Positions 2,394 through 11,300 of a DNA stretch of 64,000 nt are shown in pieces (positions within the stretch are counted from its first letter, which is position 1; every line of letters starts with the position of its first letter). The notes beneath the pieces are model-generated. The model saw only the letters and a program-made list of their open reading frames with translations, had not been told where the DNA came from and searched no databases. Position numbers and translations under genes: made by a program. This DNA comes from Eledone cirrhosa (lineage: Eukaryota): NCBI GenBank assembly GCA_964016885.1, contig OZ024741.1, positions 216,504,001 through 216,568,000 of the forward strand, read 5' to 3'.

Positions 2394-2531
2394 AATAAAG
2401 TTAAATAAAAGTCAAATGATTAAAATTTAGCTTCGTTTATTACTGCTATATATATTTCAGGTCACTGAAATATATATAGCAGTAATAAACGAAGCTAAAT
2501 TTTAATCATTTGACTTTTATTTAACTTTATT
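2394..2531. repeat. Perfect palindrome, 67-bp arms and 4-nt loop (GTCA); pLTR-like 3' half-hammerhead
   Basis: 2394-2460 is the exact reverse complement of 2465-2531; arm reads ct-GAAA-tatata-TA-gcagt-AATAAA. Confidence 0.9.
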
Positions 2532-2722
2532 TTACACTACTCCGGAGTAACCAAACCAACCTGCGCACTTCGTCGAGTGTTCCAGCCTGCATACAGAGGT
2601 GTTGGTATACAACCAACATAAACTCAAAATCTCTCTCCCTCTCTCTCTCTCTCTATATATATATATATATATATATATATATATATATATTGGAAAATGT
2701 GTGTAATCCTTGGTACAGTTAG

Positions 2723-3471
2723 ATATATTAAGACAGGGGGTAAGAAAAAATGGCTTCACTTGTGCTTTCAACAAATTTATTTTCTTCACAAAATCCAAAA
2801 AGAATTATTTTCCGGATTAGAAAAAATTTTTTTCTTAAAAAAAAATTATTTTATAAATTAAGTTGTTGGTTGTTGTTGAACAAAGGACTAATTTTGGGAT
2901 GGACGTAGAAAAATTCTTCAGAAAAAAAGAAAAAAATAATTATTTACAAACTTGGCAGGTGCGATTTGCCTGTGACCATTCTCAACACAAAAGGAATACT
3001 AAAAGCTTTTTCCCCTGAATAAAGGAATTTTTCGAGAATGACCGGGGCAGGCCGCACTTGCTACATTTCTCCCCCACCCAACCCTACTCACCGTCTCAAC
3101 TCATTACTGCTATTAACACTTTTTCAACACACCTACACCCATACACTTATTAAAGGGGGAGAAAAGAAACCCCACCACACCACAGACATGTTAAATCCCT
3201 ATATATAGAACAACACACCACATACACATCAGTTTGGCAAGCGCACCTCAGCGTGAAAGGTCGTTCTAAAAACGAAACAATATCTCCTATGTTAACCAAG
3301 AACTCCTAAGACCTAACCAACAACCAACAACTTAGTTTATAAAATAATTTTTTTTCTAAGAAAAAATTTTTTTCTAATCCGGAAAAAAATTCTTTTTGGA
3401 TTTTGTGAAGAAAATAAATTTGTTGAAAGCACAAGTGAAGCCATTTTTTCTTCCCCCCTGTCTTAATATAT
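2723..3471 (+). mobile_element. Fold-back element with ~150-bp inverted arms (2723-2875 / 3318-3471), probably PLE-derived
   Basis: Arms are reverse complementary; the interior translates weakly to ...YKLGRCDL...LNK..., reminiscent of a PLE GIY-YIG C-terminus; flanked by TA tracts. Confidence 0.6.
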
Positions 3472-3497
3472 ATATACATATATATATATATATATAT

Positions 3498-3603
3498 AAA
3501 GTGTCTTGCTCAAGGACATAACGCACCGCCCGGTCCAGGAATCGAACTCACAACCTTACGATTGCGAATCCGATTCTCTAACCACTCATCCACACGCCTT
3601 CAC
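3498..3603 (-). mobile_element. tRNA-derived CORE-type SINE head (octopus OR2-like)
   Basis: Minus strand has A box (GAGTGGTTAG), B box (GAGTTCGATTCC) and GTCCTTGAGCAAGACACTT. Confidence 0.8.
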
Positions 3604-3780
3604 GTTGCTCCTTCTACCTGGAGTTGCGACCGATAGATAGTATTAGCAATTGGAAAGACCAACGGAAACATTGTTCCCTCGGTCCGATTTGACGAAAGTC
3701 GATCGTTCCTTCATATATATATATATATATATATATATATATATATATATATATATATATATATATATATATATATATAT

Positions 3781-3918
3781 AATAGAAAGGCTTCGAGAGG
3801 ACTAGAACTGTTTCATTCGAGAGAAATCACCAGGAAGCAGCTGTCCAGATAATATAGTGGTATTTATATCTTTTCCTGGTGGTAGAGGAAGATAGGGATT
3901 GGGATGGGCTGGAGGTCA
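3781..3918 (-). mobile_element. PLE-like pLTR fragment, family B, with degenerate hammerhead-like motif
   Basis: Minus CTGGTGA-TTTC tctc GAAT-GAAAC agttcta GTC; related copies at 4031-4200(+), 10284-10417(-), 26465-26590(-). Confidence 0.55.
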
Positions 3919-4030
3919 TATATATATATATATATATATATATATATATATATATATATATATATATGTATGTATGTATGTATGTATATGTATATATATG
4001 TGTATGTATGTATATATATATATATATATT

Positions 4031-4200
4031 AAAAAGATATGACTTCTACGGGACTATTGTATACGTATAATTTTAATAAAACAATTCTAATCCTGTAAAA
4101 GTCATTTCTAAATAAAACAAATATGCTTCTTCTTTACTAACGTATTGAGTACCTTATTTACTAACGTATTGAGTACCTTATTTAATTGTGGTTTCTTTCC
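4031..4200 (+). mobile_element. Family B copy with short fold-back (4031-4056 / 4088-4112) and a 24-bp tandem duplication of the GTATTGAGTAC tail
   Basis: aaaacaattctaatcctgtaaaagtcatttcta...gtattgagtacc aligns to the reverse complement of 10284-10417. Confidence 0.55.
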
Positions 4201-8192: not shown

Positions 8193-8688
8193 CAATTATC
8201 CCAGTGTATTACTGGTACTATATATATATATATATATATATATATATATATATATATATATATATATATATATATAAATTAATATTTGATGAACATTTAC
8301 ATGTTATAGTTGCAATTGACTAATAAGATCGCTAGAGTGAAAAATCTTAATTCAACAACATAAGGTCTGCCTGTACGATCTAGAAAATAATAAATCAATA
8401 CTCACAGACTCATATGGGCAAAAAGCCTTGGTACCTAGACACGTTTAAAATTCAAAATACAAACTTTTTCCGCAGATCGGTCAGAACTTCAAACTTCAAA
8501 CATGTTTCACAAAGGATGGTATAATAGTAAAATAATTAACTAATTAGCAGTGAGTTAATCAACTTTTTCTGTGTTTATCAATAGGTACCCCTATTTATTT
8601 ATATATATATATATATATGTGTGTGTGTGTATATACACACACATACATATATATGTGTGTGTGTGTGTATATACTTACATATATATAT

Positions 8689-8830
8689 ATGAAAAGATTC
8701 AGGACCCCGACGGCCGGAGCTCCGCCGTCGGGGTCCTGAATCTTTTCATATTACCCTCTGTACTACCCCAAGTATCGAGTACTCTGGTGGGTTATGGCCC
8801 ACCTGGAATTTTACCACACCCTACCTGATC
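8689..8830 (+). mobile_element. Family C copy; palindrome 8689-8749 centred on GGAGCTCC
   Basis: atgaaaagattcaggaccccgacggc cggagctccg ccgtcggggtcctgaatcttttcat, then tail AGTATCGAGTACTCTGG. Confidence 0.75.
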
Positions 8831-9458
8831 TTTTACATATATATACGGTAGTGTCCAATCCGTATGAAGAACTCAATGTAATCCAAATATCATGAAAAGA
8901 GAAAATGTATTAAAAAATTTTTTCGATGAAAATCACAGGAAAAAACAGAGTCAAGATAAATTAATAAAAACAATGAATAAAAATAAAGAAGCAGTTCCTT
9001 ATATTAAAAAATTCATCATTTTACGATCGTTTCTAGGATATATATGTGTGTGTTGGTATGTATATCATATAGATCTATGTAAAATTTTTACAAACTATCA
9101 GAGGGAATATACATACCTACACATATATATGCTGTCTTCAGAAATAATGAATGACGAATTTTTTAATATAAGGAACTGTTTCTTTGTTTTTATTCATTGC
9201 TTTTATTAATTTATATATATACATATATATATACATATATATATATATATTTATATACATACCTAATTATAACGTTTTAATCACATTTTTAACAGTGTAA
9301 TGTGAATGGTTCCAAATAATTTAATTTCAACATAATTAATCCGTGCAGCGATGCCATGTAATGCAATGATGTGGTCTACACTGTAGCTTGATATATATAA
9401 ACTCTGATAGATTATCTCATTTAATCCATATATATTTGGTTTCCTGCTGAGTATATAG

Positions 9459-9768
9459 TTTCTTCTTCTTTTTCTTTTTCTTCTTCATCATCTTTCTTCT
9501 TCTTCTTCTTCTTCTTTCTTCTTCTTTATTATTCTTTTTCTTCTTTTTCTTCTTTTTCTTCTTTTTCTTCTTTTTCTTCTTTTTCTTCTTCTTTTTCTTT
9601 TTTTCTTCTTTTTCTTCTTCTTCTTCTTCTTCTTCTTCTTCTTTCTTCTTCTTTATTATTCTTTTTCTTCTTTTTCTTCTTTTTCTTCTTTTTCTTCTTC
9701 TTCTTCGTTCTTCTTCGTTCTTCTTCTTCTTCTTCTTCTTCTTCTTCTTCTTCTTCTTCTTCTTCTTC
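9459..9768. repeat. (TTC)n/(TTTTTCTTC)n polypyrimidine microsatellite
   Basis: Direct reading. Confidence 0.95.
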
Positions 9769-10283
9769 GTAAAATATCTTATTTTACTCTGTCAGACTTA
9801 TACTCACATAAATTGAGATTTTGCCATAAGTATAATATGTTAAGTATAATATGTTAAATATAATATGTTAAATTACTTCTCTGGGTGATATTTTATCTGT
9901 GTATTTTAGCCATTCATTGAGATGTCTAAGTATTAGAGACAAATAACTCTTTAATTGATATATATATATATATATATGTGTGTGTGCGTGTGTGTGTGTG
10001 TGTGTGTGTGTGTGTGTGTGTGTGTGTGTGTGTGTGTGTGTGTGTGTGTGTGTGTGTGTGTGTGTGTGTGTGTGTGTGTGTGTGTGTGTGTGTCTGTGTA
10101 TGTGTCTGTGTTTCTGTATATTTATGGATATGCTTTTTTTTTCTTAATTGGATATGTATCACTTTCCTTCATCACACACATACGCACACACACACACACA
10201 CACACACACACACACACACACACACACATATATATATATATATATATATATATATATATATATATATGTATATATAAATATGA

Positions 10284-10417
10284 GTCCCGGGTTCAATCGG
10301 GGGGTAACCACAGTAAGTAGGGTACTCAATACATAGCAGAGTATACATTTTTAATATAGAAATGGCTTCTACAGGACTAAAACTATTTCATTCGAAGGAA
10401 ATCACCAGGAAAGCCCC
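10284..10417 (-). mobile_element. Family B pLTR fragment in a TA tract
   Basis: Matches 26465-26590 and 3781-3840. Confidence 0.65.
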
Positions 10418-11127
10418 ATATATATATATATATGTGTGTGTGTGTGTGTATGCATGTATGTATATACAGAGAGAGTGTATGTGTGTGTTTGTGTGTGTAT
10501 ATATTTGTGTATGTGTGTATATAGATTTATATTATATTACTAAGATTATTTTTCTGTTGGGTTTGTGCATATAATTGGCAATCCCATGGGACATATTAGT
10601 ATAAATGTTGGTGGATACACGGGAGATTGTCTGCTGCTGCCATCTGGATTAACTTCCGTTACATAATGCGGAAGTATCCAATCAAATTTATCACGAAAAC
10701 GACTTCATATATCCTGTCAATCATTTTCCCCAAATCTAATGCAGTGGAAATGTGTGTGCGCGATTTTATATGTATGTAGGTATGTATGGATGTATGGATG
10801 GATGTATGGATGGAAGGATAGGTATGTATATATATTTATATATGTATGTATATATATATATATATATATATATATATATATATATATATATATATATATA
10901 TATATATATATATATATATATATATATATATATATATATATATATGTATATATATGTATATATATATATATATATATATATATATATATATATATATATA
11001 TATATTTAATAAGGTAATGAATTCTTTTACAATGGAATTAGCTCCAAGGAGGAAAATACCCCCTGAGCCGTGTATAAACAGTTTATATATATATATATAT
11101 GTATATATATGTATATATATATATTTA

Positions 11128-11300
11128 TAGGAAAATAGTCAGGACCCTGACGGCGGAGCTCCGGCCGTTTCCACAGCTATATCAAAACTAAACCAGTAAT
11201 ATTAGGACGGCAGGGACCTAGCTGAACTAGGAGCTCAGCCGTCGGGATCCTACTAGTACTCTGGTGCGTTATGGTCCACTTGGTTCCTTACCATACTTTC
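11128..11300 (+). mobile_element. Family C copy with imperfect fold-back
   Basis: caggaccctgacggcggagctccggccgtttc...ggagctcagccgtcgggatcct, then tail. Confidence 0.7.

Follow-up and report, generated by a model that had tools for sequence, protein, structure and literature searches.

The closest described systems are the EN+ Penelope-like elements (PLEs), the minimal hammerhead ribozymes of PLEs, the Anolis Poseidon element PAc and the twin priming of L1. EN+ PLEs (PMC3846280; PMC8557442) consist of pLTR-ORF-pLTR plus an inverted 5′-truncated copy, with a junction palindrome and a one-sided tail, lie in (TA)n targets and encode a reverse transcriptase (RT) with a C-terminal GIY-YIG nuclease and a cysteine-rich linker, all of which recurs among the elements analyzed here. 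PLE inversions, tails and the self-priming proposal are already published, the latter for inverted junctions (PMC3846280), and how the tandem and inverted structures form is stated as open in PMC8557442 and in the available portion of PMC11167929. The minimal hammerheads of PLEs (PMC4209133) are like the present ones in being of type I, with a long helix II, a palindromic helix III and a U3-A8 core, and in occurring as motif pairs on opposite strands, 100–700 bp apart. According to the available portion of PMC11167929, the Anolis protein PAc cuts and extends both target strands in vitro, and the tail is delimited by two internal sites at which the RT starts; these traits, together with AT-rich targets and a hammerhead cleavage that is not needed, agree with the scheme proposed below. 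Also shared, as described in the accessible part of PMC11702581, are the priming of a second cDNA by the second target end in L1 twin priming, the short microhomology at inversion junctions and a cap-derived extra G noted at an L1 junction.

Judged by their sequence, the palindromes of the window, i.e. of the whole stretch of 64,000 nucleotides that was analyzed, are head-to-head inverted pLTR pieces of three PLE families (A, C and D). The family A insertion contains a perfect palindrome at 2394–2531, with 67-bp arms and GTCA between them, exactly as given by an earlier reading made without database searches (the sequence-only reading). Its left arm (2394–2460, minus strand, matching L001 q1505–1574 in minus orientation) adjoins (TA)n and is inverted and tail-less, with the helix II base at one end and end site E1 at the other. 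The right arm (2461–2534, plus strand) comprises what remains of the helix II 3′ strand, GAAA, the palindromic helix III and the predicted cleavage site, up to E1, and is followed by a tail of ~98 nt from E1 to E2 (2535–2630, plus strand), which in the full-length copy L161 stands directly upstream of the ORF. The loop of the palindrome had been placed at helix II; GTCA is instead what is left of the 3′ strand of helix II, 2394–2531 lacks the true loop (AAGA), which lies 6–10 nt upstream in family A, and this junction occurs just once among the 20 joins found genome-wide near the site.

Concerning family C, 7242–7340 and 8687–8751 are also palindromes. The first belongs to an insertion with a left arm without tail (7229–7290, minus strand), whose 5′ end is the +2 position of a TTAGTTC motif, and a right arm (7291–7431, plus strand) that starts at the A of the same motif and includes the helix II 3′ strand, GAAA, helix III and a ~79-nt tail. 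The junction at 7291 is the commonest one of the family (423 loci), with a 1-nt centre, no overlap and no pairing. The hairpin upstream of GAAA, on which this copy had been said to be centred, was created by the inversion itself, and the turn falls within the helix II loop of the parent (29 nt) and involves no helix II pairing. The second insertion (8687–8822) is an inversion through the helix III stem (overlap 8710–8728), with a tail-less left arm and a tailed right arm, and represents a minor class (29 matches genome-wide); its centring on helix III at 8689–8749 had been recognized correctly, the join going through the 5-bp helix III stem. A diverged inversion (11127–11300) has a left arm up to the helix II 5′ strand and a right arm from near helix III, with an internal deletion. 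In family D, a long inverted arm with tail (4571–5232, minus strand, left junction boundary set by eye) extends into an AT-rich 3′ UTR and faces a short tail-less arm that starts in the helix II insert (5235–5341, plus strand), and another inversion (27678–28036) joins a tailed minus-strand arm to a tail-less arm from the GTT triplet, with a 4-nt overlap. These two arm starts, ~5235 and ~27972, are as the sequence-only reading had them, but neither zone is enriched among 29 junctions of the family.

The families are large, with 5,580 (A), 297 (C, for one variant) and 1,418 (D) exact 25-mer matches genome-wide, so the palindromes are not due to chance. The attribution of the hammerhead halves to inverted pLTR segments of PLEs was borne out: each family has a parent with a whole type-I hammerhead motif, including family C, for which the lack of an intact parent had been named as a ground for refutation. 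The family A locus L161 is a full element, with direct and inverted pLTRs, the inverted 5′ copy and a one-sided tail; its single ORF is broken, with the YRDD RT and the C-terminal GIY-YIG readable. The latter has a Pfam E value of 7e-4, below the Pfam cutoff, the protein scored 0.95 against atlas RT clusters, and Pfam and PDB searches gave no match for the RT. A cysteine-rich linker is present and points to clade Neptune or Nematis. The family D tail continues into the ORF of L220, homologous to that of family A (31–42%), while for family C there is a single nuclease match, in L194, on the same strand and ~1.1 kb upstream. A comparison with the other RT of the window (15000–16100) found nothing. 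Since the flanks of the insertions are (TA)n or (CT)n, no target-site duplication is readable. Stowaway-like MITEs are short and non-coding, with long inverted arms and TA flanks, and the palindromes share these traits, which upholds the proposed mimicry; they differ in their asymmetric ends, locus-variable junctions and arms made of pLTR retroelement sequence, which rule out MITE identity. A non-LTR retrozyme array was likewise discarded, the units being single or head-to-head, with no tandem array of them in the window.

The predicted folds of families A and D form helices I and II (z −0.2 in D). The family C hammerhead was assigned by eye and by alignment, and its predicted lowest-energy fold differs; the parent has a 29-nt helix II loop, and the core lost from the palindromes is TTGATAA, a U3-A8 variant, not the CUGANGA half named previously. 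Hammerhead motif scans missed the split cores, and an Rfam scan of the window gave no hammerhead among the matches listed (150 of 154), which were mostly microsatellite-driven miRNA matches.

In each family the 5′ ends of the arms accumulate at a single initiator-like motif: the A of TTCATATG in family A, TTAGTTC in family C and (T/C)CAGT in family D. Inverted arms began there in 30/68 (A), 63/93 (C) and 13/45 (D) cases, against 1.8, 3.7 and 2.1 expected, for zones drawn after inspection of the data and with arm starts that BLAST locates approximately in C and D, the older families. These counts come from position-ordered samples that exclude 29 best-hit loci and the selected loci, except L031 and L032 (in the family A 25-mer list); 8 duplicate loci were removed by hand, 3 family C loci were unmapped, and family A starts at q1136 were censored, as the reference L020 carries a junction of its own at that point. 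Non-inverted copies stop at the motif as well (A 14/44, C 10/20, D 4/39). Genome-wide, family A showed, with patterns of the same design, 474 joins at the motif versus 20 near helix II, and family C showed 423 versus 29 through helix III. The hot spot of family D is weaker than the other two. In family A the motif is outside the ribozyme, 120 nt upstream of it; family D has it in helix I and family C within the helix II loop. An 8-bp palindrome occurs at the family A site, and a CCAAT box ~55 nt upstream of it.

At many junctions an extra G stands before the +1 base, as copying of an mRNA cap would give. Among the matches listed (C or T at this position), an extra C was counted by eye in 72/100 for family A and 74/100 for family C, the template giving G or A, and 39 of 40 fetched extra-base matches were true junctions. 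The excess was significant in family A (p<1e-6 versus partner-arm composition), not significant in family C after allowing for CT-C microhomology with the partner arm (p 0.07), and absent from the 6 informative ends of family D. Because of the motif, the pile-up and the extra G, the motif is likely the start of a capped RNA, and the start site of family C likely falls inside the ribozyme.

Another observation is the asymmetry of the arms. The tail was present on one arm only in 88/113 pairs (E1 plus E2 ends in 33/37 of A, 35/47 of C and 20/29 of D), the tail-less arm reached further 5′ in 34 of 45 asymmetric pairs (p 0.0008), and 13/113 pairs did not overlap. A snap-back of a single cDNA would not be expected to give this combination of one-sided tail, longer tail-less arm and non-overlapping arms. 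Paired arms mostly share a haplotype, as copies of one template would: they differed at 12/299 polymorphic sites, compared to 41% when shuffled, and in three family A loci they differed at 3 diagnostic sites each. Arm-to-arm conversion could contribute partly to arm identity, and some arms could have been shortened when the centre was deleted after insertion.

We consider it probable that the head-to-head ends, which stop mostly at the likely capped start, were made by both cut target strands priming reverse transcription, with subsequent joining of the two cDNAs. A promoter in the pLTR would produce a capped RNA starting at the motif, and the GIY-YIG nuclease would cut both target strands in (TA)n. 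The tail would be bounded by the two internal priming sites, E1 used by one strand and E2 by the other, in most cases with a single RNA as template. The E1 cDNA would run to the RNA 5′ end, often copying the cap as an extra C, and the E2 cDNA would follow, often stopping early. Their 3′ ends would be joined bluntly or via short complementarity (TCATATGA, 1–8 nt of microhomology, occasionally a helix stem), each then templating the second strand of the other, in a scheme that resembles L1 twin priming. Two cDNAs from opposite target strands are supported indirectly by the end asymmetry and the 13 non-overlapping pairs. Symmetric joins at TCATATGA and helix-stem joins are equally well explained by snap-back, and overlapping arms from one RNA would need strand displacement or a second RNA.

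The sequence-only reading had proposed that the position of the turn is set by the nascent cDNA, which would snap back at helix II or III of the hammerhead and self-prime its second strand. A small class does use these stems: the whole helix II hairpin is kept at the join in 13 family A loci, besides the 29 family C joins, where an exact stem join would be rare by chance, and the family C hot spot is inside the helix II loop. As a rule it fails, most turns being at the initiator-like motif, and we regard it as very improbable. Stem joins amount to a few percent (13 versus 474; 29 versus 423), and the mapping of breakpoints that had been suggested as a check gave no enrichment of helix zones in position-ordered samples (A 4/68 arms versus 4.4 expected; D likewise not enriched, 29 junctions), so the turn rule was rejected. 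The helix II 3′ strand of family C, beside the hot spot, held 11/93 arms versus 5.3 expected (p 0.016, uncorrected). A non-ribozyme 8-bp hairpin yielded 16 joins versus the 13 at helix II, the commonest family C junction has no pairing, and Naiad PLEs without canonical hammerheads still form inverted copies (PMC8557442). Ribozyme helices are likely merely some of the available inverted repeats. At the family A locus L154 the turn is exactly at the predicted cleavage site, a zone that is not enriched. A broader version, in which a full-length cDNA snaps back on any complementary patch of its own and a nuclease trims one end to leave a one-sided tail (antisense self-priming, Arkhipova et al. 2013, included), is unlikely but deserves more weight: it explains the hot spot, the shared haplotype and the 8-bp palindrome of family A, it builds on published proposals of self-priming (PMC3846280) and of a nuclease-made tail (PMC8557442), and 11/45 asymmetric pairs have the longer tail-bearing arm that it predicts. 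Against it, the tailed arm should always reach furthest 5′ and the arms should always overlap, whereas 34/45 pairs show the opposite and 13/113 have no overlap; the three family A loci with differing arms also speak against it.

The two cDNAs could also have been joined with the pile-up reflecting an RT stop or an RNA-processing site and no transcription start, which seems quite improbable. A stable hairpin (z −3.1) has the family A site at its 5′ foot, a small GC-rich hairpin inside the helix II loop directly precedes the family C site, inspection by eye found no DPE match, and family D lacks the extra C; yet a stall would be expected at the 3′ foot of the family A hairpin, all three families have an initiator-like motif, family A has the extra G and the CCAAT box, and a start was mapped inside the pLTR of Penelope (PMC2377424). 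Finally, it is hardly credible that the short palindromes are longer ones with later central deletions, MITE-like master copies or assembly chimeras. The 2394–2531 junction is unique and blunt, a possible central deletion, no read was found spanning it, and coverage across the family C centre by RAD reads is low (5+2, 29+6 and 4+4 at base 7291). On the other hand, identical junctions recur on at least 3 haplotypes and with the tail on either side, a deletion would not leave one arm intact exactly to +1, and the arms are unequal in length and bear old mutations. In run X1, short-read contigs bridge the centre of the family C palindrome (5 among the matches listed, ~87% alike); an assembly chimera was rejected as the source.

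More tentatively, and with somewhat less confidence than in its opposite, it may be that PLEs routinely insert by two-ended reverse transcription, in which a dimeric RT-nuclease would use both target strands as primers on a single short, capped pLTR RNA, at two fixed positions, copy the cap and have the cDNA ends joined. If true, MITE-like palindromes, the one-sided tail and inverted pLTRs would share one pathway of origin, and PLE start sites would be readable straight from genomes, including one inside a ribozyme, which it would disarm. These high-copy families record thousands of insertion events and can discriminate between fold-back and two-cDNA models, and the resulting predictions could be put to the test in the in vitro system already established. 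The ribozyme-loop rule in its original form would be misleading, and the TA-flanked palindromes found here may be mis-annotated as MITEs.

The two-cDNA reading of PLE inversions was not found in the literature searched. Compared to EN+ PLEs (PMC3846280; PMC8557442), the tails are ~98 (A), ~79 (C) and ~165 nt (D) versus 30–40, and hundreds of junctions are mapped here; the explanations offered in those papers are self-priming or nuclease resolution and do not involve two cDNAs. The hammerheads differ from the minimal ones (PMC4209133) in helix II inserts of 29 nt (C) and ~60 nt (D) and in the start predicted inside the family C ribozyme. For PAc, the available portion of PMC11167929 stops short of the joining step and offers no explanation of inversions. 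As to L1, in the accessible part of PMC11702581 there is hardly any overlap between the two pieces and annealing of the second primer is internal, whereas here the starts are fixed, both cDNAs would often reach the RNA 5′ end and the palindromes are near-perfect.

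All three palindromes claimed by the sequence-only reading were found in the window, amid (TA)n tracts, in an animal genome of 3.0 Gb. Exact matches genome-wide numbered 5,580 for a family A 25-mer, 297 for a 21-mer of one family C variant and 1,418 for a family D 28-mer, and the reversed control patterns gave 0 matches genome-wide. The family labels and their assignment to Penelope-like elements (PLEs) were upheld by a full family A element (L161, reached from family A copies), by a homologous ORF in L220, into which the family D tail continues, and by parents of families A, C and D in which the type I hammerhead motif is whole. 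The order of L161 is inverted 5′ copy, pLTR, tail, frameshifted ORF, 3′ UTR, second pLTR and (TA)n. Its ORF contains a YRDD reverse transcriptase (RT), a cysteine-rich linker and, at the C-terminal end, GIY-YIG, the latter with a match scoring below the Pfam cutoff; the RT had no match in Pfam or PDB, and its atlas neighbours were eukaryotic RT clusters. For family C there was one nuclease match upstream (L194). The hammerhead core was CTGAAGA in family A parents and CCGATGA or CTGATGA in family D parents; the family C parent, on whose existence the sequence-only reading depended, carries the whole motif with the core TTGATAA. The U3-A8 core and hammerhead pairs on opposite strands were already known in PLEs, according to excerpts of PMC4209133. 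The tails measure ~98 nt (A), ~79 nt (C) and ~165 nt (D), exceeding the 30–40 bp described for PLEs.

The arm ends were mapped on copies taken in genome order from the pattern match lists: 81 units from the first 100 of 5,580 matches (A), 70 units from the first 73 of 297 matches minus 3 inside the window (C), and 68 units from the first 73 of 1,418 matches (D). It had been proposed that the palindromes turn at the helix II or III loops of the hammerhead; the breakpoints of the many copies mapped clustered instead at an initiator-like motif. In these units, the 5′ ends of inverted arms concentrated in one 9–11 nt zone per family, with 30/68 (A), 63/93 (C) and 13/45 (D) against 1.8, 3.7 and 2.1 expected if uniform, a 6- to 17-fold excess in zones drawn post hoc on data already seen. 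The same zone ended non-inverted copies (14/44, 10/20 and 4/39, respectively). In family A it lies upstream of the ribozyme, at a distance of 120 nt; in family C it falls within the helix II loop, and in family D within the 5′ strand of helix I, the motif being common to all three. Helix II of family A received 4/68 arms versus 4.4 expected, no ribozyme zone was enriched among the 45 inverted arms of family D, and the helix II 3′ strand of family C, which adjoins the hot spot, received 11/93 versus 5.3. Genome-wide joins, counted with the same two-arm pattern design but unequal pattern lengths, so that ratios are approximate, were 474 at the motif versus 20 near helix II in family A (hairpin kept in 13 of the 20) and 423 at the motif versus 29 at helix III in family C. 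The longest inverted repeat of the family A pLTR, a hairpin that is not part of the ribozyme, served as control and gave 16 joins. Stem joins are a minor but real class, tracking complementarity rather than ribozyme identity. Concerning the individual palindromes, the arms of 2394–2531 begin in the helix II 3′ strand (q1505 and q1501 of the family A reference copy), and the real loop is gone; the apparent hairpin upstream of GAAA in 7242–7340 is the inversion itself, with a centre of 1 base and no overlap; and 8689–8749, described as centred on helix III, is indeed joined through the helix stem, the only one of the three so joined. In one family A copy (L154), the predicted hammerhead cleavage site is the exact start of both arms, possibly a trace of cleaved RNA serving as template.

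Judging from sequence, the hot spot is probably the RNA start site; excerpts of PMC2377424 place the Penelope start site in its own pLTR, with an internal promoter. In arms ending at +1, the next cDNA-strand base was C in 72 of the 100 C-or-T matches listed (476 in all) for family A and in 74 of the 100 listed (585 in all) for family C, as counted by eye, while the template gives G and A; 39 of 40 such loci fetched were junctions rather than point variants. This is what cap copying would leave. The excess held in family A after control for partner-arm composition and was lost in family C when CT-C microhomology was allowed (p 0.07); no extra C was seen at the 6 informative arm ends of family D. 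In family C parents (L166–L195) the likely start site falls within the helix II loop, and RNA started there would lack the 5′ half of the ribozyme and could not self-cleave alone. The original observation is partly confirmed and the helix-loop rule is not supported; we infer that the RNA start site is a better-supported positional rule for PLE inversions.

Both arms ended at fixed sites, E1 and E2, which bound the tail, with one end of each kind in 33/37 (A), 35/47 (C) and 20/29 (D) inversions. A single cDNA that folded back could have supplied the tail only by starting at E2; the arm with the tail would then be expected to extend furthest 5′, and the two arms would necessarily overlap. However, of the 45 asymmetric pairs, 34 had the tail-less arm reaching further 5′ (p 0.0008), and arms without any common sequence made up 13 of 113 pairs; the tail-bearing arm was the longer in the other 11 of 45, and symmetric joins are compatible with either model. 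Arms of the same locus shared their haplotype (12/299 mismatches versus 41% when shuffled), discordant arms being found at three loci, with 3 sites each. The end asymmetry, the non-overlapping pairs and the shared haplotype fit a mechanism in which two cDNAs would be made, usually off one RNA, with the E1 enzyme ahead. Later deletion or conversion may obscure the arm record.

As to artefacts, neither reads nor contigs were found across the unique junction of 2394–2531, and 2,739 RAD reads have the intact parent at this site. The family C centre is spanned by at least five contig pieces of run X1 (~87% likeness), which may be the source of the assembly itself, and is crossed by few RAD reads. 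Identical joins on several haplotypes, with the tail on either side, argue for real, independent events.

The window holds other elements. Another PLE-like family, the fourth, bears a U3-A8 hammerhead motif (1010–2316 and 25706–26445) and is arranged head-to-head with 210-bp arms (99%) and a one-sided tail at 1010–2316. Further PLE remnants lie at 14157–14350 and 14700–16400 (minus) and at 23900–24720 (plus); they include an RT-like frame as well as a GIY-YIG-like end, after which comes a CTGAAGA hammerhead motif (24616–24658). A short repeated element (3781–3840, 10285–10410 and 26460–26590, minus) carries a hammerhead-like core that is degenerate (CTGGTGA or CGGATGA), and its tail is like that of family C. 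Two more hammerhead-like motifs (CTGATGA) lie at 50034–50104 and ~51900 (minus), and an 83-bp satellite of ~226 copies with 97% identity occupies 28176–46973. Copies at 3499–3600, 6640–6775, 13750–13900 and 18830–18970 are presumably tRNA-derived and SINE-like, the third containing one Rfam tRNA match (13769–13826).

The palindromes are known PLE structure: excerpts of PMC3846280 describe inverted pLTRs, junction palindromes and self-priming, and those of PMC8557442 describe tails, a bias towards (TA)n and inversions in Naiads without hammerhead. Retrozymes as PLE derivatives are treated in part of bioRxiv 10.64898/2026.07.22.740005, and PMC11702581 deals with twin priming in L1 and with the cap G; an octopus repeat paper (PMC13282606) had no relevant passage. 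None of the papers listed by literature search, judged by their entries, applied to PLEs the ideas of twin priming, of cap copying or of head-to-head junctions. The two-cDNA mechanism is a testable addition to the known structure, and it agrees with the in vitro PLE system of PMC11167929, in which, according to its excerpts, a PLE protein both cuts and extends the two strands, starting at two sites that bound the tail.
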